A stretch of 64,000 nucleotides of DNA from assembly GCA_963762115.1 (NCBI GenBank), contig CAVXJH010000006.1, forward strand, positions 480,001 through 544,000, read 5' to 3'. Shown here piece after piece: positions 11,985 to 52,802 of this stretch. The notes beneath the pieces were generated by a model. That model searched no databases, was not told the origin of the DNA, and saw nothing but the letters and a program-made list of their open reading frames with translations. This DNA is from Candidatus Babeliales bacterium. Lineage in GTDB: Bacteria; Babelota; Babeliae; Babelales; JANWKD01. Numbering within the stretch: the stretch's first letter is position 1; each line of letters begins with the position of its first letter. The translations under genes were made by a program, and so were the position numbers.

Positions 11985-13751
11985 CTAAAGATTATTTTCT
12001 TTTTTCTTTCTTTTTAAGCGAGAGCGTATAGGCTGTGGTAAGGCGGTAAAGAGCGCTTTGGTTTGTTCTGACGCATTAATATATTGTTCAATTTTTAATT
12101 CTCTATTGTTTTCTGTAATGCAGACGCAGCCATGAAGAAATGCAATGTGTTGTGCAGAAAGGTTGTGTAGGCTTTTTTTTAGATTTTCATTAATAATAGT
12201 ATGTTCTATGAAGCCTTGTTTATGGCGGGCTGCTAATACTTTGCTGTCCAGGGAAAATGTGACTGGAAATGAACAACCAGGTAAGATTTTTATAAGTTTT
12301 CCAGATTGAGAGTTAAGTATTATAATTTTATTTTTTCGTGTTGATTCTAGGGTTAACATTGAGCCATCGGGTGATATAAGCAAATGATCAATAGAGCACT
12401 TTTTTATGGGTATGATTTTATAGAGCTTTCGTTTTTTTATGTTCCAAAAACAAAGTTCATGAAGCATTTTTTTCGTTTTATTACTTTTTCTTTTTGAAAG
12501 GGAATAGAGTCTTTTTTTATCAGGAGATAAACATAAACTGGTAATCTCTCGCCGTTTAGTATGTTCTGAAGTAAAGAAATATTTTTTTACTTTGTCTTTA
12601 GTAACATTATATGTATGTATTCCTTTTCCTTGAAGAGCGAGATAAAATATTTTATTGTCTTGATCATAGGCAAATGCATGCAATTTAGTAGTGAATAATG
12701 GCATTTGTCCGTGTATAAAGGTGATTTGCTTTTTTTCATCATCATGGAGTGAATACATTTTTATATCGTTTGTCCCTATTAAAAAAAGTAAATTTTCTGA
12801 AGGTGCGTATCTGATGGATGATGTGGAAGAATGTTTTGTTTGTGTTGATCCTAAGAGAGCACTTGTCTCTAAATCGTATGCGTGTAATGATTGATTTGCA
12901 AAAAGACAAAATAATCTTTTTGTTGTTGGGCACATCCAAGAGCTATATAAATAATGATGCGTGCCAACGGGTATATCTCTTATAGCTTTATCATGCCAAA
13001 ATTTGATTGTGGAGCTGTTTGTAGGTGATTTAAATAATAAGTTATCTTGACCTGACCAATAATACCAATAATGATCGTTTTTTTCTTCCATTCTATGAAG
13101 AGTGCATTTTTGATCGAGTGTTTTCAGGAAAGATTCTATTTTAGGCGAATAAGCTATAAGTTTATTACCCAAATAGACTGAGAGATGTTGTGTATTGCAA
13201 GTATCAAGTAATGCCAATGCAGATATGATTTTATTTTTTTGTACAAGCCGTATTGTTTTTTCTGCTATATGTTCTAAACATGTTTCAAAAAGTAAGGGGA
13301 ATGCAAGAAAATCGGCTGTTTGTAATAATTCGGAAAACGTGTATGTAGATCGTTTGCTTTCTTTAAAAAATTCTTTTAGCTGACATTTTTGATGATCTTC
13401 GTTTTGTTCATTTTTTGTTATGGCTAATAATAAAGCTATTTTTTCAGCTGTTTTGAATTGTTTTTTTGAAATGTGTGATGTCGATAGACTGAGAGCAGAA
13501 TCTTGATCAAAGCTATATTGATTATGTAAAGTGCCTATATATTGAAGTTGCGGGAGATTCCATTGTGATGAATATATAATTTCTTCCTGATCATTTTCGA
13601 GATTTACCGTAATTGGCAAAATATTGTTTGCATCGCTAGAATCATCATGAATAAAATTTAATGTTTTTTGAACTGATTCCATTGCATGAGAAGATCGTGT
13701 TAATAAAAATAAGAAGAAGGCATAAAAAAGATGTCTTTTTGTTCGAATCAT
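11985..13751 (-). CDS. Secreted BTB/Skp1-like + WD40-like beta-propeller protein, paralog 1
   Basis: Signal peptide SHA|ME; ELLQTADFLAFPLLFETC; LCLSPDKK, FWNI, ISPDG blades. Confidence 0.75.
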   Translation of the reverse strand: MIRTKRHLFYAFFLFLLTRSSHAMESVQKTLNFIHDDSSDANNILPITVNLENDQEEIIYSSQWNLPQLQYIGTLHNQYSFDQDSALSLSTSHISKKQFKTAEKIALLLAITKNEQNEDHQKCQLKEFFKESKRSTYTFSELLQTADFLAFPLLFETCLEHIAEKTIRLVQKNKIISALALLDTCNTQHLSVYLGNKLIAYSPKIESFLKTLDQKCTLHRMEEKNDHYWYYWSGQDNLLFKSPTNSSTIKFWHDKAIRDIPVGTHHYLYSSWMCPTTKRLFCLFANQSLHAYDLETSALLGSTQTKHSSTSSIRYAPSENLLFLIGTNDIKMYSLHDDEKKQITFIHGQMPLFTTKLHAFAYDQDNKIFYLALQGKGIHTYNVTKDKVKKYFFTSEHTKRREITSLCLSPDKKRLYSLSKRKSNKTKKMLHELCFWNIKKRKLYKIIPIKKCSIDHLLISPDGSMLTLESTRKNKIIILNSQSGKLIKILPGCSFPVTFSLDSKVLAARHKQGFIEHTIINENLKKSLHNLSAQHIAFLHGCVCITENNRELKIEQYINASEQTKALFTALPQPIRSRLKRKKKENNL

Positions 13752-13752
13752 T

Positions 13753-15498
13753 TTAATGTTGCCTATTTTTACCTATTAAATATGATCGTATCGATGCGGG
13801 CAATTCATCAAATAATGTACGAGTTTTTTCCGATATATTAATACATTTTTTAAATATATCACCATTTTTGTTTTCTAATATGCGAGCACAAGCATACACT
13901 AATGCAAGGTGAGGTGCTGGAAAATTATGTAAATGCTTTTTAAGACTTTCATCAGTTAGAACATGTTCTATAACGCCCTTTGCGCATCGTGTAGCTAAGG
14001 TTTTGCCATCTTGAGAAAAGGCAACAGGGTAAAAGCCTTGTTTAAATATTTTTATCATATGGCCAGATTGAGCATCAAATAAAGTAACCGGTTTTTTTTG
14101 GTCACATGCTAAAGAGAGCAATGTTCCATCAGGTGATAGAAGTAATTGATACGTATGGTTAGGTTGATAATTTTTTAAAGAAATTACTTTGGTTGGTGTA
14201 CCTTTTTCTATATTCCAAAAACGAAGTACTCCAACAGTGCATGAGTCGTTGTTATTTTTTTTTGAAAGTGAGAAAAGCGTTTTCTTGTCTTTTGATAAGC
14301 ATAAAGCCGTAAAATTGATGCTTTTGCATGAAAAGAATTGTTTTAAAGCACCATTTTCAATAGTGTATTGAAGAATTCCATTGTCTTTAAGCGCGAGATA
14401 AAAGATGAGATTATCTTCATCAAAGGCAAAACCATTGATCTCGTTAGTTGTTGTTAATGCATAGTGGTTTGAATGGATTAGTTTGCCTTCGTTAAGATGA
14501 TAACTGTAGATCACCTTGTTCTGTATAAAACATAAAATATTTTTTGATGGAGAATAGGAGAGTGATTTTGTTCCCGGTGTTGCATTTTTGCCAGCCAAAA
14601 ACGTTCCAGTTTTTAGGTCATAAAGTTGAATGGCGCCCTCAAATAAACAAAATAATTTATTTGACATAGGGCAAATATAAGACGCTTTCAGTGGAGTCCT
14701 GCTTACGGTGGAAATGGTATGCATGGTATGATCATGCCAAAAACTTATGTTTTCATGATCGAGTGATCTCAATACTAAAGAATTTGATCTATAGGGAAGA
14801 AGAAAAGAGTTTTCTCTTGGATGAAGTACCTGTTCCTGGGTTAAAGCAATAAGTAGACGACGGATTTCTGGGGAGCAATGTAATATTTGATTTCCAAGGT
14901 ATGTTAAAACATGATGATTGTCTATGTTTTCAAGTAATAAAAGTGCTTTTTGAAGCTTATTTTTTTTTATAAGATTTTTTATAGTTTGGGTTATTCTTTC
15001 TAAGCACAATTCAAAAAGCAATGGACAATCAAGAAAATCGCTGCTCTTTAAAAGATCTACAAAAATATTTATTTGTTTATTTGTTTTTTGAAGACATTCT
15101 TTTAATTGATTCTTTTGTTCTTCGCTTTGTTTTTCTTTATTTTCTTGTTCTAAACTTGCCAAGAGCATTGTTACTTTTTCAATTGTTTTTAACTGTTTTT
15201 TTGAAATGTGTGATTCTTGCAGACTCAAAGGAGCGTCAGGTTCAAACTCATATTGACTGCGCAGGTTGCCGACATAACCAAGTTGTGAGAGATTCCATTG
15301 CGATGAATAGACAATTTCCTGACGATTATTTTCGAGATTTATGGTAATGGGAATGGCTGTATCATCATGCACCAGAGCAGGCATTTTTCGATTGGATTTT
15401 TTTGTTAATTCCATTGCATGAGAATTTTGTAGTGCTAAAAATAAGAAGAGGGTAGAAAAAAGATACATTTTTGTTGTAATCATATTAATGTTTTTCAT
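13753..15498 (-). CDS. Secreted BTB/Skp1-like + WD40-like protein, paralog 2
   Basis: SHA|ME; DLLKSSDFLDCPLLFELC; LSPDG and FSQDG blades. Confidence 0.75.
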   Translation of the reverse strand: MKNINMITTKMYLFSTLFLFLALQNSHAMELTKKSNRKMPALVHDDTAIPITINLENNRQEIVYSSQWNLSQLGYVGNLRSQYEFEPDAPLSLQESHISKKQLKTIEKVTMLLASLEQENKEKQSEEQKNQLKECLQKTNKQINIFVDLLKSSDFLDCPLLFELCLERITQTIKNLIKKNKLQKALLLLENIDNHHVLTYLGNQILHCSPEIRRLLIALTQEQVLHPRENSFLLPYRSNSLVLRSLDHENISFWHDHTMHTISTVSRTPLKASYICPMSNKLFCLFEGAIQLYDLKTGTFLAGKNATPGTKSLSYSPSKNILCFIQNKVIYSYHLNEGKLIHSNHYALTTTNEINGFAFDEDNLIFYLALKDNGILQYTIENGALKQFFSCKSINFTALCLSKDKKTLFSLSKKNNNDSCTVGVLRFWNIEKGTPTKVISLKNYQPNHTYQLLLSPDGTLLSLACDQKKPVTLFDAQSGHMIKIFKQGFYPVAFSQDGKTLATRCAKGVIEHVLTDESLKKHLHNFPAPHLALVYACARILENKNGDIFKKCINISEKTRTLFDELPASIRSYLIGKNRQH

Positions 15499-15715
15499 TT
15501 TTATTATTTGTAGCTACCTTCTTGTCGGAATTGGTTTATTTTTGTTATACCAGATTTGATTTCCTCTGGTAATTCATCAAAGAGCCTTTGGCTTTTTTCT
15601 GATAATTCAATTGGTTGATTGTTGAGTGCTCTTTGTGCGCAATAATCAAGTACGGCAATATGTTCTGTCGGAAGTCTGTGTAGTTTTTTATAGAGTTCTT
15701 CGTTGTAGAGATTGT
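15482..15715. repeat. Near-identical direct repeat of ~17221-17454 (period 1739 bp)
   Basis: The gene junction and the 3' ends of paralogs 3 and 4 align with only scattered mismatches. Confidence 0.9.
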
Positions 15716-17237
15716 TTAATATAACGCCGCCGAATCCTTTTGCCGCTAATGTTTTTCCATCTGGTGCAAAATCAATATAATATTGCGAGTTATTCAAAAA
15801 AATTTTTATACAATAGCCATCTTGCGTATCAATCAATTGTATGGGGCTAGGATTTGCAAAAGATACTGCCAACATGGTGCCATCAGGCGATAATCTTAAA
15901 TGCCTTATTGGAGGGGGCATTCCATGGTATTGAATAGCTGGGTTGCATTCTATTGTTTTAAAAATTGTTTTTTTATCGATATTCCAAAAAGATATTTGTG
16001 CCTGTTCATTGCCGGAAAATAATGTTTTTCTGTCTTTTGAAAGGCAAAGTGATGTAGTCGCAAAGTTACTAAGAAATGTTTTTGATAGGCGAGGTTTATC
16101 AATTTCTAATATATCAATGCTTCCTACACAGCCTAAAAAGAGACAATTTTTTTTTGGATCGGCCGCTACTGCTCGTATATTTTTAGTATGAGTATATTCT
16201 TCCAAGATAGCAGTTAATTCTTCAGAATTTTCAGTGGTTTCATTTGGAAGATTCCATATTGAAATTTTATTTTCACCAAATATACATAAGGCTTTTTTTT
16301 CAGGTATATGCAATAAATGAGGAATTACTCTTGTTGTTTTAATGATATTCTTATGACATGGGAATTTTTCATTACAATCAAAGGTCCAAAGTAAACTATA
16401 AGGATACTGACAATAATGTATTTTGTTTTCATCGGAGAAAATTATTGATACTATTGATGTCTGAGAAGGTGTTATTTGGTATGAATCTGTATCATTAAGT
16501 AGAAGTTTTACTAGTCCTGTATTTTGAATGCAGGCTAATGATTTTCCTTCTGGAGAATAACATAATGATATTGTTTCGCCTCTAAGTTCAATTTTTTTAA
16601 ATGTGTCAGAAATGCAAGCAAGTAGTTGCTTTAAATGACGAGAATTATTTAAAAAATGATTGCCAATGGCCATTGAAAGCTCAGGAACTGTTATGCTTTC
16701 TAATAATGCTACAGCTTGGTCACTTTTATCATCTAATGATAATGATTTTGCGCGTTGATAAAGTTGATGTGCGCATGCATCAAGCAAGGGTGAGCAACTA
16801 AGAAAGTTTGCACCATTCATCAGTTCAATAGTTGCATGATCAGATTGTTTGGCATGGGTCAAACATTTTTTAAGCTGGTTTTTTTGTTTTTTTACTTGTT
16901 TTTTCGGATCTTCTTGCTCCAAAATTGCAAGAAGCATTGCTGATTTTTCAATGGTTTTTAATTGTTTTTTTGAAATTTGTGATTCTTGTAGATTCAAAGG
17001 AGCACCAGGTTCAAATTCATATTGATTATACAAGGTGCCGACATAATCAAGTTGTGAGAGATTCCATTGCGATGAATATACAATTTCTTCGCGATCATTT
17101 TCGAGATTTACCGTAATTGGCAAGAAGCCATCGTCTTGTTCTTTTTCTTCCATTGCATGAGATTGTTGAATTACTGAAAATAAGAAGAGAGCAGAAAAAA
17201 GATATATTTTTGTTGTAATGATATTAATGTTTTTCAT
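15504..17237 (-). CDS. Secreted BTB/Skp1-like + WD40-like protein, paralog 3
   Basis: SHA|ME; ELMNGANFLSCSPLLDAC; SFWNI, LSPDG. Confidence 0.75.
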   Translation of the reverse strand: MKNINIITTKIYLFSALFLFSVIQQSHAMEEKEQDDGFLPITVNLENDREEIVYSSQWNLSQLDYVGTLYNQYEFEPGAPLNLQESQISKKQLKTIEKSAMLLAILEQEDPKKQVKKQKNQLKKCLTHAKQSDHATIELMNGANFLSCSPLLDACAHQLYQRAKSLSLDDKSDQAVALLESITVPELSMAIGNHFLNNSRHLKQLLACISDTFKKIELRGETISLCYSPEGKSLACIQNTGLVKLLLNDTDSYQITPSQTSIVSIIFSDENKIHYCQYPYSLLWTFDCNEKFPCHKNIIKTTRVIPHLLHIPEKKALCIFGENKISIWNLPNETTENSEELTAILEEYTHTKNIRAVAADPKKNCLFLGCVGSIDILEIDKPRLSKTFLSNFATTSLCLSKDRKTLFSGNEQAQISFWNIDKKTIFKTIECNPAIQYHGMPPPIRHLRLSPDGTMLAVSFANPSPIQLIDTQDGYCIKIFLNNSQYYIDFAPDGKTLAAKGFGGVILNNLYNEELYKKLHRLPTEHIAVLDYCAQRALNNQPIELSEKSQRLFDELPEEIKSGITKINQFRQEGSYK

Positions 17238-17242
17238 TTTTA

Positions 17243-19000
17243 TTATTTGTAGCTACCTTCTTGTCGAAATTGGTTTATTTTTGTTATACCAGATTTGATT
17301 TCCTCTGGTAATTCATCAAAGAGCCTTTGGCTTTTTTCTGATAATTCAATTGATTGATTATTGAGTGCTTTTTGTGCGCAATAATCAAGTACGGCAATGT
17401 GCTCTGCCGGAAGTCTGTGTAGTTTTTTATAGAGTTCTTCGTTGTAGAGATTGTTGAATAGAATTGTGTTGCAAAGCCCCTGAGTTGCTAATGTTTTTCC
17501 ACTTGGTGAAAAATCAATGCAATCTTTTGCGTAGTTCCAAAAAATTTTTATACAATAACCATCTTGGGTATCAAACAATTGTATCGGGCTAGGATTTGCA
17601 AAAGATACTGCCAACATGGTGCCATCGGGCGATAATTTTAATTGTGTTATTCGAGGGGGCATTCCATAGTATGGGATGACTTGTTTACAGTCTATTTTAT
17701 TGAAGGTGATTTGGTCATCAATATTCCAAAAAGATATTTGTGCCCGATTATTGCCAGAAAATAATGTTTTTCTATCTTTTGAAAGGCAAAGAGCAGTAAT
17801 CACAGAATGACTAAGAAATACTTTTTCAATATGAGGGTCATCAATTTTTAATACATCAATGCTTCCTGCGCAGCCTAAAAATAAACAATTTCTTTTTGGG
17901 TCTGCCACCACTGCATTAATGTTTTTAGTATGAGTATATTCTTCCAAGATAGCAGTTAATTCATCAGAATTTTCAGCGGTTTCATTTAGAAGATTCCATA
18001 TTGAAATTTTATTTTCGCCAAATATGCATACAGCTTTTTTTTCAGGTATATGCAATAAATTATGAGGTATGCGTGATGTTTTTATTGTATTGCCGCTGCA
18101 AATAGATTTTTTATCACAATCAATGGTCCGTAAAAGACGATGAGGATATTGACAATAATGTATAACATTCTCATCAGAAAAAATCATTGATAAAGAGCGA
18201 GATATTGGCTTTTTTATTAAATCGGTAAGCGTAGTATCTTCTAAAACTGTTATTTGTATACCATTGGTGTTGCAAGTGCATGCTAATGATTCTCCCTTTG
18301 GGGGATAACATAATGATATTATTTCGCCTCCAAGTTCAATTTTTTTAGATGTATCAGAAATGCAGACAAGCAATTGTTTTAAATGGCGAGAATGATCTAA
18401 AAAATGATTTCCTACGCCTACTGAAAGTTCAGAAACGGTTATATTTTCTAATAATGCAATAGCCTGGTCACTTTTATCTTCTAATGATAATGATTTTGCA
18501 CGTTGATAAACTTGATGTGCGCATGCATCAAGCAAGAGAGGGCAACTGAAGAAATTTGCATCATTCATAAGTTCAATATACGTTTGCTCAGATTGTTTGG
18601 CATCGGTCAAATATTTTTTAAGCTGTTTTTTTTGTTTTTTTGGACCTTCTTGCTCCAGGCTAGCAAGAAGCATTGCTGATTCTTCAATGGTTTGTAACTG
18701 TTGTTTTGAAATTTGAGATTCTTGCAAAGTAATGGCAGAGTTTTGATCAAAAGTATATTGATCATGTAAGATGCCAACATAACGAAGTTGTGGAAGACTC
18801 CATGGTGATGAGTAGACAACTTCTTGACGATCATTTTCTAGATTTACGGTAATGGGAATGGCAGTATCATCATGCACAAGGTTAGGCATTTTTCGATTGG
18901 ATTTTTTTGTTAATTCCATTGCATGAGAATTTTGTAGCGCTGAGAATAAGAAGAGAGCAGAAAAAAGATATATTTTTGTTATCATGGATGATGCTTTCAT
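17243..19000 (-). CDS. Secreted BTB/Skp1-like + WD40-like protein, paralog 4
   Basis: SHA|ME; ELMNDANFFSCPLLLDAC; C-terminus near-identical to paralog 3. Confidence 0.75.
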   Translation of the reverse strand: MKASSMITKIYLFSALFLFSALQNSHAMELTKKSNRKMPNLVHDDTAIPITVNLENDRQEVVYSSPWSLPQLRYVGILHDQYTFDQNSAITLQESQISKQQLQTIEESAMLLASLEQEGPKKQKKQLKKYLTDAKQSEQTYIELMNDANFFSCPLLLDACAHQVYQRAKSLSLEDKSDQAIALLENITVSELSVGVGNHFLDHSRHLKQLLVCISDTSKKIELGGEIISLCYPPKGESLACTCNTNGIQITVLEDTTLTDLIKKPISRSLSMIFSDENVIHYCQYPHRLLRTIDCDKKSICSGNTIKTSRIPHNLLHIPEKKAVCIFGENKISIWNLLNETAENSDELTAILEEYTHTKNINAVVADPKRNCLFLGCAGSIDVLKIDDPHIEKVFLSHSVITALCLSKDRKTLFSGNNRAQISFWNIDDQITFNKIDCKQVIPYYGMPPRITQLKLSPDGTMLAVSFANPSPIQLFDTQDGYCIKIFWNYAKDCIDFSPSGKTLATQGLCNTILFNNLYNEELYKKLHRLPAEHIAVLDYCAQKALNNQSIELSEKSQRLFDELPEEIKSGITKINQFRQEGSYK

Positions 19001-19136
19001 TACAAAGATGTTTTTATTGGCTTTATGCTCTCAGATTTTTATGAAAAGTCAATTTTATATTTGTATGTTTGCAGTTGTTTTAGCAGCTTGTTACGCTATT
19101 GAAAATATTTTTTTGCTTATCTTTTGGAGAGTAGCT

Positions 19137-20999
19137 ATGAATAATGTACAAGCATTTTTAGAACACAGTGCTTATAATATGCGTGTTTCAACATTAAAAA
19201 TGACAACGCAAGCTGGATCAGGTCATCCAACATCTGCATTGTCAGCTGCAGATTTAGTTGCAGCACTTTTTTTTTATGCCATGCATTTTGATCCTCAAAA
19301 TCCACAGAATCCTAATAATGATCGTTTTATTCTTTCAAAAGGTCATGCATCACCTATTTTATATGCCGTATGGAAAGAATTGGGTGTTTTATCTGAACAA
19401 GATTTGATGACGTATCGTCAGTTTGATTCTTGTCTTGAAGGGCATCCGACGCCACATTTTACACGTTCTGAAGCAGCAACCGGTTCATTGGGTCAAGGTC
19501 TTTCAATTGGTGTTGGCATGGCTTTGAGTGCGCGCATTGATCAACGCGACTTTTATACGTATGTCATGCTTGGTGATAGTGAAGTTGCTGAAGGTTCAAT
19601 TTGGGAAGCGGCGGAATTAGCATCATTTTATAAGTTGGATCATCTTATTGCTATTTTGGATTGTAATCGACTTGGGCAAACAACCGAAACGATGGAAGGT
19701 CATGATGTAGGCATTTTTGTTGAACGTTTTGCTGCTTTTGGTTGGCATACTTTGGTGGTTAATGGGCATGATATACATGATATAGTTATTGCGTTCGATG
19801 AAGCAAAAAAGATGTGCGATAAGCCAATTATTATTATTGCAAAAACGCTCAAAGGGTTTGGTGTTGAAAAGGCTGAAAATAAAAATGGTTTTCATGGTAA
19901 AGCATTTAGTAAAGAAGAACTTCCTTTAATTTTGCAAAATATGCAAGAACGGTTTTCTGATGCAGCCAAAAAAACTAATTATGCGTGGGAACCACAATTG
20001 CCAATACAAAAAAACAAAAAAAATGATGGAAAAGAAGGCTTAAAATTTAATATTCCGACGTTTGAGTCGGATAAAAAAATTTCAACGCGAAAAGCATATG
20101 GTTTAGCATTAGCAGAACTTGGCGCATGTATGGCAGAAGTAGTAAGTCTTGATGCTGAAGTTAAGAATTCGACGTATGCTGAATTCTTTGCCGAAAAATT
20201 TCCTGATCGATTTATACAATCATTTATAGCTGAGCAAAATATGATTGGCATGGCTGTAGGATTGGCTGCACGAGGAAAAGTTCCTTTTGCTTCAACATTT
20301 GCTGTTTTTTTTACACGAGCATTTGATCAAATTCGTATGGCAGCAATTGGTCGTGCACCATTGCGACTTGTTGGTTCGCATGCAGGTGTTTCAATTGGCC
20401 AAGATGGCCCATCGCAGATGGGGTTGGAAGATATTGCTATGATGCGCACTATTCCTCATTCAGTTGTTTTGTATCCTTGCGATGCGGTGAGCACCGTTAA
20501 ATTAGTTGAGCTTATGGCAAATCGTTCAACGGGAATTTCCTATTTGCGCACAACACGTGCAGAAACGCCACAACTTTATGATGCCAATGAAATATTTGAA
20601 ATTGGTGGCTGCAAAATTCTTAAACAAAGTGATCATGATGTTGCTTGTATTATAGCAGCGGGTATCACGCTATTTGAAGCGCTCAAAGCGTATGAACAAT
20701 TACAAAAAGAGGGTATCGCTATTGCTATTATTGATCTGTATTCCATAAAACCATTAGATAGTGAAACACTTTTGAGCGTTGCGCAAAAAGCGGGAAAAAA
20801 TATCATTACGGTGGAAGATCATTATCGTGAGGGTGGATTAGGCGAGGCGGTTGTGTATGCTCTACACAATCAAGATGTACAAATTAAGTGTTTGGCTGTT
20901 GATAAGCTTCCTCGCTCTGGAAAGCCTGAAGAGTTACTTGCTTATGAAGGTATTGATGCTGCTGCAATTATTAAATCAGTTCAGAAGTTTTTAAAGTAA
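19137..20999 (+). CDS. tkt: Transketolase
   Basis: GSGHPTS, DRFILSKGHA, TGSLGQG, GDSE..EG.IWEA, IAEQNM, GQDGPSQ; ATG at 19137 after GGAG. Confidence 0.95.
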   Translation: MNNVQAFLEHSAYNMRVSTLKMTTQAGSGHPTSALSAADLVAALFFYAMHFDPQNPQNPNNDRFILSKGHASPILYAVWKELGVLSEQDLMTYRQFDSCLEGHPTPHFTRSEAATGSLGQGLSIGVGMALSARIDQRDFYTYVMLGDSEVAEGSIWEAAELASFYKLDHLIAILDCNRLGQTTETMEGHDVGIFVERFAAFGWHTLVVNGHDIHDIVIAFDEAKKMCDKPIIIIAKTLKGFGVEKAENKNGFHGKAFSKEELPLILQNMQERFSDAAKKTNYAWEPQLPIQKNKKNDGKEGLKFNIPTFESDKKISTRKAYGLALAELGACMAEVVSLDAEVKNSTYAEFFAEKFPDRFIQSFIAEQNMIGMAVGLAARGKVPFASTFAVFFTRAFDQIRMAAIGRAPLRLVGSHAGVSIGQDGPSQMGLEDIAMMRTIPHSVVLYPCDAVSTVKLVELMANRSTGISYLRTTRAETPQLYDANEIFEIGGCKILKQSDHDVACIIAAGITLFEALKAYEQLQKEGIAIAIIDLYSIKPLDSETLLSVAQKAGKNIITVEDHYREGGLGEAVVYALHNQDVQIKCLAVDKLPRSGKPEELLAYEGIDAAAIIKSVQKFLK

Positions 21000-21189: not shown

Positions 21190-24100
21190 ATGCATAATCG
21201 TTTCTCGTCAATTTTTTCATGGTCTTTTCTGAGTGTTTTTCTAGTAGCGCTTTCTCTTTTTTCTGATGTCTTTTGTATGTCTGGTGAGTTGAGCAAAGAG
21301 CGTCAAGAATGGCTTATCAAAACATCTCAACAGGCTCCTGAATATATAAAAATTATGAATCAAGGAGTTGAGGAGTCAGCTCAAATTGTAGCAGAGGCTT
21401 TGATTACTAGTCAAAAACCAAAAAAAAAGATAGATGAACTAAATGGTTTTTCTGTTAAAGCTGCCGTGCAAATTGCTTCAACGGTACAGTTAATGTCTCA
21501 AGATAATTCTGCAAAATTTGATTTTCGATGGCATCAAAAAAAGAGCGGACCCATAGCTACCATCGCCTTATTGAATGATCCTAAATTGCAAGGAGTTCTT
21601 CAAAAAAATTATCCTGGAAAAAAATTAAATGCTTTAAAGAAGAAATATAAAAAAAATGAAAAGGTGCCAGTTTGTGCTCGATGGCAGCCTATGCAATTAC
21701 CTAAAGATATTTCTGAAAAAGATTTTTGGAATCCTTCACAAGAATTTGGTGAGCAAGAAGATTTTGATTGTTCTTTGCGAAGATTGGGTATCGAAGCATG
21801 CACAGAAGATCCAGAAGCCATTAAAAAACAAAATGAAAAGTATGCTAAAAAAGAAGAAAATTTAAAGCCTTTAAAAGAAGCTGCTCTTGTATGGGAGAGA
21901 CAAGATGATAAAAGTGATGATGGCAAGAAGGTAAAACTTCAAGTAAATGATAAAGATGAGTCTGAGCAAAAAGCATGGCAGCAATTTTCATATAGTTTTA
22001 TGAGGGTTCTTCATCGTCACAATCAAGCTTTAGTTAACGCAGCTTTTTATGAGCGAAAAGAAGATGTGTCGAATATGCTTCATAGTTTATATCAAGCACA
22101 GGCTATAAAAAATGCTTTATTTGCTTTGCCAAACTATCATGAAGCTAAAGATAAGCAATCAAAAATATATTCCAATATAGTGCATCCTGGATTGTCCGAA
22201 GATTTATACACCGTGCATAGTTTTTTGGCAGATAAAAAAGAGGCTCAATTAGTTGTTGAGAGGCCATTGTCAAAAAAAGAGTGGATTGTTTTTGGGTGTA
22301 AGTTGGGCAAAGCTGTTTTAAATAATCCTTCAACAATAAAAGCATTATTAAAGCAAGATTCTTTGCATGAAGTGTTAGATAGTGAGGTAATGAAACGCTA
22401 TGTTGCAGGCTCACGGATACATACGTTTTTGGAGAAAAGTGGTAAGTGGGTAGATTTTTTTGACAATCATACTCGTTTAAAAGCTATGATTACCCCATTT
22501 GGTAGATATTTTATTAGGCCAACGCTAAAAGGGATTCTTTCTTTTACAAAGCATCGATTAGAAAGTAAAAAAGAAGAAAATAAACACACAATTCCTGTTT
22601 TGCAAAATACCTTAGATGCTTATGTGCTGGCTTTAAAGGATGAATATCAAAGAGCAAAAAAGATGATTGGCAATGATTCTGAAAATGTTCTTGTAGATGA
22701 ATATATGCAATTGCTTTTTAAGCAAGCCCAATTGCATTGTAAACAACATCAAATTATTCCATTCCCAAAAGAAGAAGTAGAAGAATTAAAAAAAAGTGTT
22801 ACATGGTTTGCTTCTGACGAGTTATTAAAAATGTTATCAGAAGAAGAAAAAAAGGAGCAAAGAGACTTTCTTGATTGTATTAATTTTTGGTTGCAATTTT
22901 ATGATGAAAAGATAAAACAATCTGGGTCATTAGGTGTTGTTTCTTTAGACGGTGCCACCAAAGAATATAATAAAAGTAAAAAAGATTTATTGGCTATAAG
23001 TTGTCAGATGCCGGTCATTGACAAGCCTATTAAAAAATCTCGTTGGAAGTTGCCTGTACCTGATGATTTATCGGTAGTTAAAGAAGTTGAAAAATTAGAG
23101 CAAAAAGCACAAAAGGATCAGGCAGAAGTTAGGCAAAAAAAACAAAAAGCAGTAGGGCAAAAATATTTTTCTTTACAACAATCTAAGGCATATCATACCC
23201 CAGAAGATTTTTTGGTTCCTAATAATCATATTGATCAAGAATTACGGGCATTTATTAAAGAACATTCAGATCAATATCGTTCTTTTTTTGATACTCATCA
23301 TCAATTATTAACTTTATTAAAGATTTCAACAGAAACATTTTTGAATATTTTTATAAAAGCTACATTAAATAAAGAATCTGAAGCAATTAGATTGCATAGA
23401 GATAATCTAGGGGATCAACTTGTAGAGCTGTTGCTTGAACAAAGACATATAGAAGAAGAACAAGAAAATTTAGAAAAAAAACGTGCCCATTTTTTTAATA
23501 GTTATTTTGCAAAAGGGGCACGACAAGCAAGAAGCTTCTTTAATTATTTCTATTCATTTATAAAAGATCACTATATACAGTGGCGTTTGAAGAAAACTAC
23601 TGTTACAAAAGATAGCATTAATAATAATTTGAAAGTGCTTAGAGCAGAAATTAAAAAGTTGAAGGGGACTCAAGAGTATATGGCATTTGATCAAATGTAC
23701 CGTTCAAGAATACATCAGCCATATATTACCGATCCACTTTTAGAGAAAAAAATAAAAACGTTAGTACGAGTTATAGACCCATTGTTTGAATATGCATTAT
23801 CTCCTGAAAAGCGATCGAAGAAACAATCATTAGATGAATTTATTGCCAAAAGGCAGCATAGAAAGCCTTTTTTAGTTAAATCACTTCCAATATATGATGA
23901 TGTGGCTCATGTGGCGGTGCCAAGACAAGGAGGAGCTGAATGTGCAATCCATGCTTTATTGAATGGGTTTGCATTATGTGAAAATGATATTAATTTTACT
24001 GAAAAACATTTAGGTGAATGTAGATTATTAGTGAAAAAAATTCGGCTTGCTTCAAAGATAAAATTGAAATTGCTAAAGAAAAATAAAAAAGGTTTTTCCA

Positions 24101-25008
24101 AAGATGGAAAAGTAGTTTTGCCTCTTGATGATGAATTAGCTATTGATCAAATAGTGTATCAAATACGCGATGATGATCCTCGTTTGAAAAAATATACTAG
24201 TGATTGGCTTGAGCCAGTGGAAACTACAAGATTGAATCGGTTGCTATTAGAAAGATTGCATTTACAAAAAAATGAAGTTGTTTTTATTACGGATTTATCA
24301 TGTTATTTAGATGGTGGAAAAACTATAAATCTTCAAGAAGCACGTAAGATTAGAAATATTCAAGCCGCTTTACAAGGTCATGGAAATTATAAATGTTCGA
24401 TTCAACTTAATAATTTTGTAAGTCATGAACGAACCTGTGGTGATAATGGTCATTATGTAACGCTTTATATCGAAAAAAATGGTTTAGAGATTATCTATAA
24501 AATGGCAAATTCATATCCTGAAATTTCATCGGAACAAATTTTTAATAATTTTATGAAGGTTATTCATACGCTTGATTTTCAAAATGTTGTAAAAGAAGAA
24601 AACGAAGAAAAAGTAGCGGATTTGTTAAGTCGTTTAGATTTTAAAAAAGTATTTATTGATAAAAGATTAAATCAAAATACAGCTCAAGCAAGTAAAAATG
24701 GTATTGAACAAAATAAGCGAAATATATGTTCAAAGAATGATCTTGGAGATGATTCATTGGTTGATTGGATCTTAGAGGGCGTGCGAAATAGTATTCTTTT
24801 AACTAAAGGAAAAGCTTTGTGGACGAATTCAGGGTTCAAGGATACAAGAGCAATACTATTAGATACTCTTGATGCACTTGAGTCTGCTCAAAGTAAGGTT
24901 GTAAAAGTTTATAAGGACTCATCAGAAGTTCCGCAGATGGTTATCTTAACTAATGAGCAAAAAGAATTTATAGCCGAAGTAAGACGTGCTTTTGCAATGG
25001 AAAATTAA
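21190..25008 (+). CDS. Large secreted protein (1272 aa) with coiled-coil regions and a C-terminal papain-fold/Josephin-like peptidase domain
   Basis: Signal peptide; QGGAECAIHALLN (Cys918), GHYVTLYI (His1088), MANS (Asn1107). Confidence 0.6.
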   Translation: MHNRFSSIFSWSFLSVFLVALSLFSDVFCMSGELSKERQEWLIKTSQQAPEYIKIMNQGVEESAQIVAEALITSQKPKKKIDELNGFSVKAAVQIASTVQLMSQDNSAKFDFRWHQKKSGPIATIALLNDPKLQGVLQKNYPGKKLNALKKKYKKNEKVPVCARWQPMQLPKDISEKDFWNPSQEFGEQEDFDCSLRRLGIEACTEDPEAIKKQNEKYAKKEENLKPLKEAALVWERQDDKSDDGKKVKLQVNDKDESEQKAWQQFSYSFMRVLHRHNQALVNAAFYERKEDVSNMLHSLYQAQAIKNALFALPNYHEAKDKQSKIYSNIVHPGLSEDLYTVHSFLADKKEAQLVVERPLSKKEWIVFGCKLGKAVLNNPSTIKALLKQDSLHEVLDSEVMKRYVAGSRIHTFLEKSGKWVDFFDNHTRLKAMITPFGRYFIRPTLKGILSFTKHRLESKKEENKHTIPVLQNTLDAYVLALKDEYQRAKKMIGNDSENVLVDEYMQLLFKQAQLHCKQHQIIPFPKEEVEELKKSVTWFASDELLKMLSEEEKKEQRDFLDCINFWLQFYDEKIKQSGSLGVVSLDGATKEYNKSKKDLLAISCQMPVIDKPIKKSRWKLPVPDDLSVVKEVEKLEQKAQKDQAEVRQKKQKAVGQKYFSLQQSKAYHTPEDFLVPNNHIDQELRAFIKEHSDQYRSFFDTHHQLLTLLKISTETFLNIFIKATLNKESEAIRLHRDNLGDQLVELLLEQRHIEEEQENLEKKRAHFFNSYFAKGARQARSFFNYFYSFIKDHYIQWRLKKTTVTKDSINNNLKVLRAEIKKLKGTQEYMAFDQMYRSRIHQPYITDPLLEKKIKTLVRVIDPLFEYALSPEKRSKKQSLDEFIAKRQHRKPFLVKSLPIYDDVAHVAVPRQGGAECAIHALLNGFALCENDINFTEKHLGECRLLVKKIRLASKIKLKLLKKNKKGFSKDGKVVLPLDDELAIDQIVYQIRDDDPRLKKYTSDWLEPVETTRLNRLLLERLHLQKNEVVFITDLSCYLDGGKTINLQEARKIRNIQAALQGHGNYKCSIQLNNFVSHERTCGDNGHYVTLYIEKNGLEIIYKMANSYPEISSEQIFNNFMKVIHTLDFQNVVKEENEEKVADLLSRLDFKKVFIDKRLNQNTAQASKNGIEQNKRNICSKNDLGDDSLVDWILEGVRNSILLTKGKALWTNSGFKDTRAILLDTLDALESAQSKVVKVYKDSSEVPQMVILTNEQKEFIAEVRRAFAMEN

Positions 25009-25012
25009 TTAT

Positions 25013-25924
25013 TCATTTTGTTTTAACAAAAAGTAATTGTGGCTTCTCATCAATATCATTATCATGCCAATTTTTGATTGTATGTAACATGTCAGGTAGA
25101 CATTTTAAAAACTTGTGAAAAAGAAAATCAATGTGCATTAATCCTTTTCCATCTAATTTAATCTCAATTTGCCGAACTTTTGTGCAATGATCAGGAAAGC
25201 AGCGTCCTGAAAAAAAGGTGAGCGGTTTGAGCATTTTATGTTTCTTGCGCCAATAATGAAATCCTTGCGGATCCAATACTTGAATGCTATCAGAACGAGA
25301 ATAGAATGAATAAATCGTGGTAAATAAATCATCATGGGCATAGCAGGCTGTTTGCTCTTGAATTGGGCATGCCAGTAAAATAAGTTCATCAATGCAAAGT
25401 TTGTTATTATAATCTTTAATTTTTGCCATATTAAGAGCAACATTGCCGCCATGACTGTGCGTTATAATTCTGATAGAGGGTTTTTGGTGGTACGTTTCTT
25501 CATATTCTTTTATAAGAATTTGTATCGCTTGATACAATTCTCGCGCAGCTTTAATACGTGCTTTAAAATTTAATTTCCCTGACCAGCCAAAAAAATAAAA
25601 GGTTTCGAATGAAAATAGGTCTGGTGCATGCGTGTGTAATAATTCAGCAATAGAGCGGAGATGATATTTTTTTTCAAATTTTTTTGCAGGATTAAGGCCT
25701 GGCAAACAATAAAAGAAGTTATGAAAAAAGTATTTTGAAAAAAAGGCTCTTGTGCCATGAACCCAAATGGTTATTGAAGGGGGTGCTTGAGGAACACTGC
25801 ATGCGTCATGTGTTTTTTGTCGGTCATTGAGATGGAGATACGAGCACTTTTCAAGATTAAGAGAACGGCAACTAGCCACCACAATAAAAAAAAGAAGAAT
25901 GAAATAATAGTGATTCCTGTTCAT
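25013..25924 (-). CDS. Alpha/beta hydrolase, probable lipoprotein
   Basis: VVASC lipobox-like, WVHGT, ITHSHGGN; related to 2923-3717. Confidence 0.8.
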   Translation of the reverse strand: MNRNHYYFILLFFIVVASCRSLNLEKCSYLHLNDRQKTHDACSVPQAPPSITIWVHGTRAFFSKYFFHNFFYCLPGLNPAKKFEKKYHLRSIAELLHTHAPDLFSFETFYFFGWSGKLNFKARIKAARELYQAIQILIKEYEETYHQKPSIRIITHSHGGNVALNMAKIKDYNNKLCIDELILLACPIQEQTACYAHDDLFTTIYSFYSRSDSIQVLDPQGFHYWRKKHKMLKPLTFFSGRCFPDHCTKVRQIEIKLDGKGLMHIDFLFHKFLKCLPDMLHTIKNWHDNDIDEKPQLLFVKTK

Positions 25925-25998
25925 GTCTTTTTCTATTTTTATTTTATACTTATGAATGTATAACAAAAATAGAAAAAATTGAGACGATTGTCGAATGG

Positions 25999-26690: not shown

Positions 26691-26939
26691 TTTTTTCCCT
26701 TTAATACTTATTTAATAAAGGTTTCTTTTGTAAAAATCATATCTTTCTTGTGTTATAAGTGTAGCACTATCATTTAAATAAAATCAATAATTGAAATAAA
26801 AAGCAAATAAAAACAATAAAAATCTGTTGGCGAGAGAAGGTTTATTGAAAAATGCACATAGAATGTTTGATGAATTTGTGGTATACTATTGATGAATAAT
26901 AAATACATTTAAATATTACTATTTTTGCTTGCGTGTCTT

Positions 26940-27383
26940 ATGAATTATCTTTCTCTTATCTGGCTTTTATTAGCGTTTATTTTTCTTATCTTTGAACTGG
27001 GTCACCCTAGTTTGTTTTTGTATCTTTCTTTTTTTTGTGGATCGCTATTAGCATTTTGCGCATCATTTTTATCGTATTCTTTGTTTCACCAATTGATGTT
27101 TATGGTGATGGGTACTGCTATTTCTTTGATTATATTGGGTTATTTTTTGCGAAGAACAAAGCAATTAAATCTTAATAATGAACCAAAAACAAATATGTAC
27201 GCTCTACAAGGAAAGCGTGGGTATGTATTAAAGGAAATTACTCTAATAAGCATGGGTGAGGTAAAAATTGGAGCAGAGCGTTGGTCAGCACGATCGCTCC
27301 ATCAAGACGTTATTTCTGTAGGAGCATTAGTTGAAGTCGTGCAGGTAAGCGGCTGCCATTGCGTGGTAAAAATAATAAAATAA
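26940..27383 (+). CDS. NfeD family membrane protein
   Basis: Three TM helices plus OB-fold GEVKIGAERWSARS; precedes an SPFH gene. Confidence 0.85.
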   Translation: MNYLSLIWLLLAFIFLIFELGHPSLFLYLSFFCGSLLAFCASFLSYSLFHQLMFMVMGTAISLIILGYFLRRTKQLNLNNEPKTNMYALQGKRGYVLKEITLISMGEVKIGAERWSARSLHQDVISVGALVEVVQVSGCHCVVKIIK

Positions 27384-27406
27384 CTCTATTTTGTTGAAAG
27401 GTTTGT

Positions 27407-28393
27407 ATGGTTTTAGAACTAAGTATGGCGTTGGTTTTCGCGCTTATTTTTTTAGTTGTTGTATTGTTAAAATCGGTTTATTTAGTTAAACAAGCAGAAA
27501 CAGTCATTATTGAACGTTTTGGCCGGTATGATCGAACATTAACGGCGGGTATTCATTTGGTTATTCCTTTTATGGAAGCCCCTCGTATGGTGCATTGGAC
27601 CTATGTGAGTTCAGAAGGTGATGGAAAACGTTATTATCGTTTTACTAAATCAACCAATCGTATTGATTTGCGTGAAGCTGTTTATGATTTTCCCAAGCAA
27701 AATGTTATCACCAAGGATAATGTGACTATGGAAATTAATGCTTTGCTGTATTATCAAATTACTGATCCTAAAGCAGCAGTCTATGAAGTGGCAAATCTTT
27801 CTGAAGCAATAGAAAAGTTAACACAAACGACTTTGCGCAATGTTATTGGTGCAATGGATCTGGATGCGTCGTTGGTTTCTCGTGATTTAATTAATGAAAA
27901 ATTACGGCTTATTTTAGATGAAGCAACTGATAAATGGGGCGTAAAAATAAACAGAGTTGAATTGCAAGAAGTTAATCCGCCGCATGATATTCGTATTGCA
28001 ATGGAAAAACAAATGCGTGCTGAGCGTGATCGAAGAGCAATTATTTTAGAATTTGAAGGTAAAAAACGGGCTGCTATTTTGGATGCAGAAGGCGAGCGTG
28101 AAGCAGATATTTTACGAGCTGAAGGACAATCGCAATCAAACATCATAACAGCTCAAGGTGAAGCCGAAGCTCGTTTGAAAATTGCACAGTCTGAAGCAAC
28201 AGCGATTGCTATGATTCAAGCATCAGTGCCAAATGGTGATCCATTACCTTATATGGTTGCAATGCATTATATTAAAGCGTTGCCTGAAATGACCAAAGGT
28301 AAAGATAACAAAATGATCGTTGTTCCTTATGAAGCAACATCATTGGTTGGTAGTCTTGCGACGGTAAAAAAGATTTTTGAGTCAGCGCAATAA
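27407..28393 (+). CDS. SPFH/stomatin-like (QmcA-like) protein
   Basis: IIERFGRY, VITKDNV, QTTLRNVIG, WGVKINRVE, MEKQMRAER. Confidence 0.93.
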   Translation: MVLELSMALVFALIFLVVVLLKSVYLVKQAETVIIERFGRYDRTLTAGIHLVIPFMEAPRMVHWTYVSSEGDGKRYYRFTKSTNRIDLREAVYDFPKQNVITKDNVTMEINALLYYQITDPKAAVYEVANLSEAIEKLTQTTLRNVIGAMDLDASLVSRDLINEKLRLILDEATDKWGVKINRVELQEVNPPHDIRIAMEKQMRAERDRRAIILEFEGKKRAAILDAEGEREADILRAEGQSQSNIITAQGEAEARLKIAQSEATAIAMIQASVPNGDPLPYMVAMHYIKALPEMTKGKDNKMIVVPYEATSLVGSLATVKKIFESAQ

Positions 28394-50742: not shown

Positions 50743-52053
50743 ATGAATTCTTTATCTAAATTGTTGAGTTGGTTATTTTCCTTATTAATTGTCTGTCCGC
50801 TTTATTCTATGGAGAATAATCCAGGACAGTTGCCATTGGCATCGATATATTTGCTGCTTAATACGGCAGATCCTGGGGAAAACTACAAAATTTTTGATGC
50901 AGATGAGCATTATGTTGTATTTGATTCATTTATTGGCATCTTGCTTGGCAAGAAGAAAACGGCCAACAATGCTCTTTTTATTTCATATGGATTAAGTGCT
51001 TGCTTAAAAAAGGAATATGAAAAGTCTATTAACTATTTTAAGTCATTAGATATTAAAGATCCTCTTGAGCAAGTGGCTATTCAGCCTGTTGAAACATCAA
51101 CCTTTCATATTGCTGGTAGAAAAAGAAATGAACTTATCATTGAAAAGAAACTATTACCATTTACGGCTATTACTGAAACAAGTGGTGGTTTGGTGAGTAG
51201 AACAAATACAATGAAAACGGTTTTTTTGAAAAATTCAAATGATGAAGCCTTATCTCATTCAATACCTATTACAAATGATACTTATGAGGCGTATGTTTTA
51301 GGCAGAAATTCTAACCTTGGCATCGAAAAAGAATGTATTGATCGATTTAAAATTCTTTTGGCGCTTGCTCAGGGTTGGCAATGGCATGATACAAAAAAGG
51401 GTCTTTATTGTTTAATTCAAAATGGGAATGATGCATTTTTGCCAATTAACCAATTTGAACATGTTGATAATCCTTTTGTTCAAGAAAATAAAAATGATAC
51501 TAATGAATGGATTGAATCACTTGATGATATTTTTCCTATGCAGCATAACTATCGCTATGCGTATTATTTTAATGCTCATGGTTCGCCTGATGGTTCAGAA
51601 GCTGGTGAATTGCATTATGTACTCAGCATGCCGGAAACAAAGATCAGTGAGTTTTTTGCTTATCTTAACAGGCAACCGAATCTTGATCTTGTTATTATTG
51701 AATCATGTTTTGTCGATGGTGAAAAAGTATTAAATCTTGTTCGGCAATATCAACAAATAGATACTTTCAATTTTGCGATTCTTTCTGCAACAAGCAAAAC
51801 AGCGGAAGCTGTTTCATCACCGTCAATAGAGTTACAGCGATATTATCCGCAATGGTTAAAAATATTTGATTGTAATGAAAAGATGCTAACATGCGATACA
51901 TCACTTCGTGTGCGCATTGGAAAGTGTCATAAAAAAATTATTGAGAATCCGCAAGGAATTTCAGCAATGCAATTGTTCAGTAAAAAAAATAAACAGTTGG
52001 GGCATAAACAGAAACCGTTACTTCTTTTGTCAGGATCTTCTCAGCAAATATAA
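50743..52053 (+). CDS. Secreted protein with a caspase/CHAT-like (clan CD) His-Cys dyad
   Basis: LYS|ME; YYFNAHGS (His279) and LVIIESCF (Cys322). Confidence 0.6.
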   Translation: MNSLSKLLSWLFSLLIVCPLYSMENNPGQLPLASIYLLLNTADPGENYKIFDADEHYVVFDSFIGILLGKKKTANNALFISYGLSACLKKEYEKSINYFKSLDIKDPLEQVAIQPVETSTFHIAGRKRNELIIEKKLLPFTAITETSGGLVSRTNTMKTVFLKNSNDEALSHSIPITNDTYEAYVLGRNSNLGIEKECIDRFKILLALAQGWQWHDTKKGLYCLIQNGNDAFLPINQFEHVDNPFVQENKNDTNEWIESLDDIFPMQHNYRYAYYFNAHGSPDGSEAGELHYVLSMPETKISEFFAYLNRQPNLDLVIIESCFVDGEKVLNLVRQYQQIDTFNFAILSATSKTAEAVSSPSIELQRYYPQWLKIFDCNEKMLTCDTSLRVRIGKCHKKIIENPQGISAMQLFSKKNKQLGHKQKPLLLLSGSSQQI

Positions 52054-52176
52054 TATGGTAATTTTGATTAGAAATTTAAAAAAAATGAGAGCGCAGTAAG
52101 CTTGTGTTGTTTATGAAAAAATAGTAGCATTCTCAGGAAATCATTATTTTAATTAAAAATAAAGGAGACTTGATAC

Positions 52177-52716
52177 ATGAAATTTAAATTATTTCATATT
52201 TTTTCTTTGGCATTATGCGCTGTTTCTTATGCATATTCAATGGAGAATTTCGAAGAATTAACTGATCCAGAAAAACTTGTTTCTGAAATTAACCAAGTGC
52301 TCAATGCGGGTGGAACAACACAAAGAAATTATGGTTGTTGCGGCGAAAAAAATTTGAAAATCGCCGCGGCTCTTTATGCTCGTTATTATATTATTGGTCA
52401 ACAAGATGCTGCTTGTTGTTATGATACTGGAACGAAAGATTGTCTAAAAAGATGGGTACAAAAACAACCTTTTCATAGCTTTATAAATCGTCATATTCCT
52501 CCTACAGAACTTAATCAAATTTTTCAAGAACAATGTGCATGGGTTGAACAACAAACAGAAAAAAATGATATACAGCATTCACTGGGTTGGGTAGGACGCT
52601 TTAGTTGGGATTCTTTTGGGGATACACCTAGAGCAATAAAAATTCCAAAAGAACAGTGGAAAGAAAAACGTACAGCAGCTTTAGTAGAATTAAAAAGAGA
52701 ATTTACTAAAGAATAA
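52177..52716 (+). CDS. Secreted hypothetical protein
   Basis: AAGGAG RBS; AYS|ME; two CC pairs. Confidence 0.75.
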   Translation: MKFKLFHIFSLALCAVSYAYSMENFEELTDPEKLVSEINQVLNAGGTTQRNYGCCGEKNLKIAAALYARYYIIGQQDAACCYDTGTKDCLKRWVQKQPFHSFINRHIPPTELNQIFQEQCAWVEQQTEKNDIQHSLGWVGRFSWDSFGDTPRAIKIPKEQWKEKRTAALVELKREFTKE

Positions 52717-52743
52717 AAATATATAAAATACGTTGATTTTTTT

Positions 52744-52769
52744 GAGGGGATTTAATTCCCCTCTTTTTT
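52744..52769 (+). terminator. Intrinsic terminator
   Basis: gagggga/tcccctc stem plus T-run. Confidence 0.75.
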
Positions 52770-52802
52770 ATTCATGTAGCGTATGCGCATATAAGCGATA
52801 TA

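Follow-up and report, generated by a model that had tools for sequence, protein, structure and literature searches.

The window analysed here, a 64,000-nucleotide stretch of DNA from a Candidatus Babeliales bacterium of the phylum Babelota, encodes a 1272-residue protein in an open reading frame (ORF) at positions 21190-25008 of the plus strand. We propose, with a probability of roughly 0.55, that residues ~900-1135 of this protein form a circularly permuted CE-type protease for ubiquitin (Ub) or ubiquitin-like modifiers (Ubls), predicted to be secreted and belonging to a widespread Babelota family. Circular permutation is likely because each half of the domain matches CE-clan (Ulp1/SENP-type) proteases while the order of the halves is exchanged. 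On the best reading, the domain has a CE-clan-type catalytic core whose Gln-Cys helix has moved to the front, and the protein is likely a putative secreted ubiquitin/SUMO/NEDD8 isopeptidase. The family conserves the catalytic residues, places Cys before His and matches the CE clan in each half; the fold itself is predicted by models. An earlier prediction for this ORF, hereafter the original prediction, had suggested a Ub or Ubl protease role, which the present analysis supports as a predicted function.

The catalytic residues and the family that carries them

Three short motifs starting at residues 912, 1087 and 1103 supply the oxyanion Gln and the triad, namely Q913 (23926-23928), C918 (codon 23941-23943), H1088 (codon from 24451) and N1107 (24508-24510). 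These are the positions named in the original prediction, and both the placement of Q913 five residues ahead of C918 and the 170-residue spacing between C918 and H1088 are confirmed. In alignments of 88 family members, Cys and His are invariant (88/88 each), Gln is present in 87/88 rows, and the third residue is Asp in 81 rows and Asn in 6. The residue after His is W in 75 rows, Y in 12 and F in 1; in the window protein, conservation marks H1088 as the catalytic His and Y1089 as its aromatic 'gatekeeper' (24451-24456 for the pair). This pattern supports the predicted papain-type Cys-His-Asn arrangement, in which an oxyanion Gln is present and the His is followed by an aromatic residue. The motifs exceed chance expectation: of the 1787 open frames in the genome, the one encoding the window protein is the single match to a loosely defined Gln-Cys pattern. 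The protein was also described as exported, and a signal-peptide-like N-terminus is indeed predicted by a hydropathy heuristic at residues ~1-29 (21190-21276, plus strand), the sole strongly hydrophobic stretch of the protein. Among the 80 members whose 5' ends are complete, 69 have such an N-terminus, as against 384 of 768 control frames in the same crude test.

The description of the protein as an orphan holds only for named-family databases. The window protein alone gives no significant Pfam match (none to Josephin at E≤1 and none to C48) and no significant match to PDB sequences, and 16 database homologues have no Pfam domain and are at most named 'hypothetical protein'. Direct searches retrieve the protein P0003 (48-51% identity), an orthologue from the same genus (43%) and two proteins of shorter length. 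The window protein and the three relatives nearest to it (26-50% identity) all share the Gln, the Cys and the His, and residues 901-1200 are the best conserved region, with 25-30 of every 100 positions identical in all three full-length orthologues compared with 3-22 of every 100 upstream. A 3-row profile matches 51 of 261 phylum genomes at E≤0.01, and a 19-row profile at E≤0.001 matches 150 of the 261, with 109 matches among the 189 genomes of good quality and 19 of the 21 families represented; the seed rows of the latter profile were drawn from the same 261 genomes, and its matches were inspected in part.

The fetched loci contain 108 distinct ORFs with at least one half of the domain: 90 have both halves, 9 the Cys half only and 9 the His half only. 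All 90 ORFs with both halves are Cys-first and none is His-first, and the family is therefore filed as a permuted CE relative rather than as a canonical member of the clan. Their triads are Cys-His-Asp in 81 members and Cys-His-Asn in 8, with the third residue not located in 1, and the Cys-His spacing ranges from 111 to 348 residues (median 150). A quick tree of the 88 His halves is mostly unresolved, and the Asn-type members are not clearly clustered in it (5 changes, with 45 of 500 shuffles as low).

A paralogue in the same genome (L036/L037; G000:C7, ~51135-52859, plus strand) is a 574-residue Cys-His-Asp protein with a signal-like N-terminus and a 330-residue spacing, and it has an orthologue, L091, in genome G001. 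The syntenic relative in genome G004 (L005:3521-7073, minus strand) is split into two overlapping frames of 496 and 695 residues by a frameshift or an assembly error, and its protease domain is complete within the downstream frame. Tandem protease domains occur in a 1920-residue protein (L126:756-6515, minus strand) that has lost the Cys from its second Cys motif, and another member (L023:601-3135, plus strand) has a second intact Gln-Cys motif 113 residues past the first His. Duplication is the usual route to permutation. The two tandem-domain members establish that duplications occur in the family, and they do not give the direction of the permutation.

The range of the family outside the phylum was probed by one pattern scan (20 loci) and word searches. 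No relative was confirmed among viral contigs with one subgroup pattern, and one canonical Ulp1 used as the query against plasmids and viruses gave no match. In the BFVD database, three large proteins of Hyperionvirus, Edafosvirus and Hokovirus (A0A3G5ADB8, A0A3G4ZWX5 and A0A1V0SFN0) are weak whole-domain fold matches (E 0.002-0.03, the first over 254 columns) and possible viral relatives.

Half-by-half resemblance to the CE clan

In the PDB sequences of both CidB (E 9.2e-5) and SENP8 (E 0.097), the 19-row profile matches two stretches that follow each other in opposite order in the profile and in the target; the 88 rows were therefore split into two halves. The Cys half of the window protein (residues 905-964; 23902-24081, plus strand) comprises a strand, Q913, the C918 helix and a long helix, and its Gln-Cys segment resembles the C-terminal part of CE-clan domains. 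The His half (residues 1000-1135; 24187-24594, plus strand) resembles their N-terminal two-thirds. Against PDB sequences, the His-half profile has two significant matches, CidB (E 2.4e-5) and RickCE (E 5.4e-4; composition bias 6 bits), and SENP1 and NopD follow below significance. The short Cys-half profile has no PDB sequence match, and the evidence for this half is accordingly weaker. Of the 88 rows, 6 match Pfam Peptidase_C48 with their His half (E≤0.05) and 3 with their Cys half (E≤0.1); in a scan of 72 sequences, the matches of the two halves lie at C48 profile positions 93-133 and 151-206, respectively. Two members, L008 and L129, pass the curated C48 cut-off.

A canonical Ulp1 profile built from six giant-virus Ulp1-like proteins (L254-L259), all over the Pfam C48 cut-off, is the closest sequence profile found. 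In comparisons of hidden Markov models (HMMs) with hhalign, the His half aligns to columns 5-106 of this profile (probability 90.3, E 1.5e-6), with Trp, His and Asp in register, and the Cys half aligns to columns 136-163 (probability 45.6, E 2.1e-4), with Gln and Cys in register. Across runs, the Cys half reaches probabilities of 46-62% and E values of 2e-4 to 8e-5, above 40 of 40 shuffles. With 39 rows, the His and Cys halves score 40.8 and 25.6, compared with maxima of 17.7 and 16.1 for 40 column shuffles each and with 12.1 and 6.5 for reversed profiles. The His-half match extends over 95-96 columns and takes in the Trp helix ~80 residues before His, and the unsplit profile scores lower against the Ulp1 profile (probabilities 57 and 19). 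Each half thus covers a part of a single CE profile that the other leaves free, with the order of the two exchanged. The giant-virus proteases differ in that they have the canonical His-Asp-Gln-Cys order.

Structure comparison of the His half points in the same direction. With a structure model of this half (predicted local distance difference test score, pLDDT, 85.4), CE-clan proteins occupy ranks 1-17 of 48,161 chains and 27 of the top 50, and ranks 1-16 in a repeat look; AnkD, HopZ1a and PopP2 are counted under labels that we take to be CE-clan. The best rows are OtDUB (Z 6.3, root-mean-square deviation (rmsd) 4.2 Å, 107 residues aligned) and NopD (Z 6.2, 4.0 Å, 116 aligned), and the ten best rows are all deubiquitinases (DUBs) or SUMO proteases. 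The aligned part of Ulp1 (residues 444-559) starts directly ahead of W448 and stops short of C580. The other clan labels follow the classifications given in parts of PMC13720258 and PMC10318531.

How does the family compare with the clan as a whole? The group considered comprises Ulp1/SENP/NEDP1, OtDUB, NopD, XopD, LupA, CidB, RickCE, SdeA and SseL. The Trp helix, strands, His-aromatic strand, Asp/Asn-Ser strand and helix follow in the same order in both, and the Gln-x-Cys helix of the Babelota family fits the C-terminal segment of the clan. However, His precedes Cys in the clan, as described in a section of PMC7391069, whereas Cys precedes His in the Babelota family. The window protein further differs from the clan in its variable insert between the halves, its Asn as the third residue, its Sec-type signal-like N-terminus, its low identity (10-16%) and its lack of a Pfam C48 match. 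Permutations are known from other papain-like folds, including NlpC/P60, PPPDE and bacterial OTUs, in which the helix of the catalytic Cys changes domain end; those treated in the accessible part of PMC10318531 run from Cys-first to Cys-last, and none there combines a CE-type core with a Cys helix in front.

In Ulp1, residues W448, H514, W515, D531 and C580 form the Gly-Gly tunnel and the triad (PMC9603560, in part). The tunnel aromatics W448 and W515 would correspond by alignment to W1006 and Y1089 of the window protein. W1006 (24205-24207, plus strand) falls on the Trp that is invariant in the Ulp1 profile and is probably equivalent to W448, the lid Trp of the clan. According to a portion of PMC7391069, DUBs and those Ubl proteases that cleave at Gly-Gly, in both clans, conserve an aromatic residue next to the His.

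Three canonical loci, L127, L128 and L130 (in genomes G113 and G216), are the sole His-first Ulp1 matches in the 261 genomes. They lie in long low-complexity ORFs that resemble eukaryotic mobile elements and, as judged by eye, probably represent binning contamination.

Josephins and other alternatives

The original prediction likened the triad to that of the Josephin ataxin-3 and suggested HHpred, or AlphaFold modelling followed by Foldseek. An AlphaFold2 model of residues 884-1140 (pLDDT 82.8, predicted template modelling score 0.80) yields no Foldseek match at E≤0.001, while VIA-align ranks three bacterial Josephins first, and this ranking provides the best model-based evidence for the Josephin assignment. 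PcJOS leads (Z 6.3, rmsd 4.6 Å, 151 residues aligned), followed by BpJOS (Z 6.1, 3.9 Å, 137 aligned) and PaJOS (Z 6.0, 5.2 Å, 151 aligned), which together cover model residues 10-247 in order; NopD comes next (Z 5.2, 3.6 Å, 113 aligned), mostly papain-like proteases follow below, and ATXN3L (Z 4.8) and JOSD2 (Z 4.4) are also among the matches. The whole-domain ranking also supports a papain-type arrangement of the modelled triad. The top three whole-domain fold matches thus favour a Josephin weakly, with Z scores about 1 above those of CE and other papain-like rows; the significant sequence-profile matches are to the CE clan, with the halves swapped. The original prediction had taken the long Cys-His spacing as a reason to consider another papain-fold family, and this argument is not decisive, given a range of 111-348 residues in the family and a spacing of 122 in PcJOS (C162/H284; 10.1101/2024.07.24.604956, in part).

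A divergent Josephin-type deubiquitinase or ubiquitin clippase with the ordinary papain order, whose CE likeness would be convergence on a shared His/Asp hairpin, is an unlikely explanation in our estimate. Beyond the fold ranking, it draws on the same residue order and Gln-x4-Cys spacing, on the aromatic residue after His and on the intracellular setting, since Josephins are present in intracellular bacteria according to the part of 10.1101/2024.07.24.604956 that treats them. The bacterial Josephins, although the best whole-domain matches, superpose with rmsd values of 3.9-5.2 Å at 9-13% identity, and their His-Asp spacing (16 in PcJOS, from the same preprint) differs from the 19-20 residues typical of the Babelota family. 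The significant profile matches of both halves, on complementary segments, are to the CE clan, as are the best 17 fold matches of the His half. With no more than model residues 119-243 aligned, NopD reaches a Z of 5.2, about 1 short of the Josephins, although a sequential aligner gives CE proteins no credit for a displaced Cys helix; several CE rows (NopD, OtDUB, LupA and RickCE) do not start until model residue 116-121, immediately ahead of W1006, as would be expected of such an aligner facing a permuted relative. Past its Asn strand, the model has only helices, whereas eukaryotic Josephins have further strands there. No Pfam Josephin match is over the cut-off in any of the 261 genomes (best member 22.8 bits versus 26), a cut-off that bacterial Josephins may also miss. 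Josephins are absent from the 50 listed rows of the His-half fold match, an absence that does not exclude the family; neither do they appear among the PDB-sequence matches of three larger profiles (E≤10) or among the Pfam matches counted for 29 and 88 members, with the same limit. An argument from short tails (26 of 87 members end 52 or fewer residues past His) was dropped because the PcJOS crystal construct, as described in that preprint, ends 40 residues past its His. A different papain-like protein in genome G033 (L153:808-1809, plus strand) has a signal-like N-terminus, a weak match to the Josephin model, a USP-like Cys box recognized by eye and a His...Asp-Ser strand pair.

The permuted CE-type core could also serve another activity, either as a YopJ-like acetyltransferase or as a protease for the ATG8 lipid link or for a host or bacterial preprotein. 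Lem17 (Z 4.7-5.5), AvrA (Z 4.6), RavZ, HopZ1a, PopP2, I7L, pS273R and adenain all occur in the His-half list, RavZ is the best-scoring protease in Foldseek with the His-half model (E 0.013), and Acetyltransf_14 matches one member (E 0.006). Bacterial CE enzymes act on ubiquitin, SUMO, NEDD8 or ATG8, or acetylate, as one part of PMC13720258 sets out. Such an activity is rather unlikely, considering that the ten best structural rows are confined to DUBs and SUMO proteases, that an Asp/Asn third residue and the oxyanion Gln are each present in 87/88 rows, and that the significant sequence matches are the DUBs CidB and RickCE. Quite improbable, finally, is that the proteins form a papain-like family of their own, no closer to the CE clan than to Josephins or UCH, with CE matches that reflect motifs common to all Gly-Gly-cleaving proteases. 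Scattered weak matches to C12, C86, C48 and C5 among members fit this idea, as do the low fold and Foldseek scores and the decoy-level scores against three canonical Ulp1 proteins; the length of the His-half alignment, with its Trp helix far upstream of His, and the occupation of ranks 1-17 and of 27 of the top 50 rows by a single clan argue against it.

Several observations weigh against the permuted CE-type protease that we favour. Neither the whole-domain nor the His-half model has a Foldseek match at E≤0.001, all VIA-align Z scores are below 8, in the tool's 'possibly a common arrangement' range, and the best CE row of the whole-domain comparison (Z 5.2) stands below three Josephins. Pfam Josephin (PF02099) gives weak matches below the cut-off on three members (E 5e-5, 1.7e-4 and 0.004), and the Josephin cluster reaches 0.83 in the Atlas feature search, under its lead threshold. 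The HMM-HMM comparison covers the CE side only, since two sets of virus records yielded no Josephin sequence (0 of 16, 0 of 18), and the cut at residue 1000, chosen after the CE matches had been seen, favours the CE clan by design. Against three canonical Ulp1 proteins of eukaryote-like type, the half profiles score no better than decoys; in its own genome, the window protein is not among the best 14 matches of the canonical Ulp1 profile, and the profile matches both segments in 7 of 90 members, all of them Cys-first. The link to the CE clan, as judged from sequence, thus runs via the family profile rather than via the window sequence alone. Peptidase_C12 matches one orthologue (1 of 29 members; E 1.1e-4, 22.5 bits versus a cut-off of 27), and YUH1 is matched by the 19-row profile on the Cys segment only (E 0.24). 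The Trp count at the W1006 column (48 of 88 rows, with a gap in 16) is biased because the Trp pattern helped set the region starts. Moreover, lpg1949 keeps the aromatic motif and is nevertheless an acetyltransferase, as reported in PMC7391069 (in part), and a Sec signal by itself does not bring a protein to the host cytosol. The family lacks the defining order of the CE clan and stays below the Pfam Josephin threshold, yet it shares the Josephin order.

Proposed mechanism, setting and gene neighbourhood

If the domain is a permuted CE-type protease, the protein would be exported by the Sec pathway via its N-terminal signal and then delivered to the host side. The Gly-Gly tail of the modifier may thread between W1006 and Y1089, as it does between W448 and W515 in Ulp1, and C918, activated by H1088 and N1107, would attack the isopeptide bond to a host protein, with Q913 stabilizing the oxyanion. 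Substrate choice or location may depend on the variable insert that separates the halves and on the N-terminal region of 880 residues. The purpose of the reaction could be to keep the bacterium or its vacuole clear of ubiquitin-like marks in a protist host.

Described Babelota (Dependentiae) are intracellular parasites of protists (PMC12172432 and PMC6561590, both in part), and 44% of Chromulinavorax proteins have signal sequences according to a section of PMC6561590. The secreted proteins of the phylum are mostly unnamed, and a catalytic mechanism is now proposed for a family present in more than half of its genomes. A permutation would also explain why this family escapes annotation, since a linear profile recognizes just one half. 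With papain order around a CE-type core, the family would fall outside both classes of bacterial DUBs, the papain-order families and the permuted CE clan, as they are divided in part of PMC13720258. It would also bear on the origin of the CE permutation, a link left open in the available text of PMC7391069. Tentatively, and at somewhat less than even odds, we suggest that these phylum-wide, lineage-expanded secreted CE-type Ub/Ubl proteases are Cys-first either through reversal of the CE permutation or as a surviving relative of the unpermuted ancestor; the family would then be a missing link between papain-order DUBs such as Josephins and the Ulp1-SENP clan and a candidate core effector of the phylum. 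Its compact members of 260-400 residues ease biochemistry, and linkage-specific reagents of practical use have come from new DUB families.

The literature searched, which excludes most subscription papers, contains no account of this family; phylum terms have 0 occurrences in the accessible text of PMC10318531, PMC13720258 and PMC10643670, and supplementary files to PMC10318531 and to the Josephin preprint could list members. Ubiquitin-like domains (L131-L145) occur in 13 of the 261 phylum genomes. The four examined (L131-L134) have signal-like N-termini and no canonical LRGG end, and L131 is ~80% identical to giant-virus ubiquitin.

Outside the protease domain, the window protein contains a charged region of residues 30-880 (21277-23829, plus strand) that is partly common to close orthologues and missing from most family members. 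This region has no match in the Pfam search, the Atlas gives no match for the N-terminal region, and a localising or scaffolding role is our guess. The C-terminal region (residues 1140-1272; 24607-25005, plus strand) is conserved within the close orthologue group. The gene lies between a transketolase gene upstream (18984-20999, plus strand) and a convergent gene for a PGAP1-like alpha/beta hydrolase (25013-25966, minus strand), and the relatives in genomes G001 and G004 have the same two neighbours. The source genome comprises 1.53 Mb in 7 contigs with 31-37% G+C. A look-up of sequencing runs lists three DNA entries with small shares and none from RNA. Upstream of the transketolase gene, four tandem genes (11985-19000, minus strand) encode proteins of 577-588 residues with WD40/beta-propeller matches, and the one examined in full has a signal-like N-terminus. 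Beyond the hydrolase gene, an NfeD and SPFH/Band 7 gene pair (26925-28393, plus strand) is conserved near the locus in G001.

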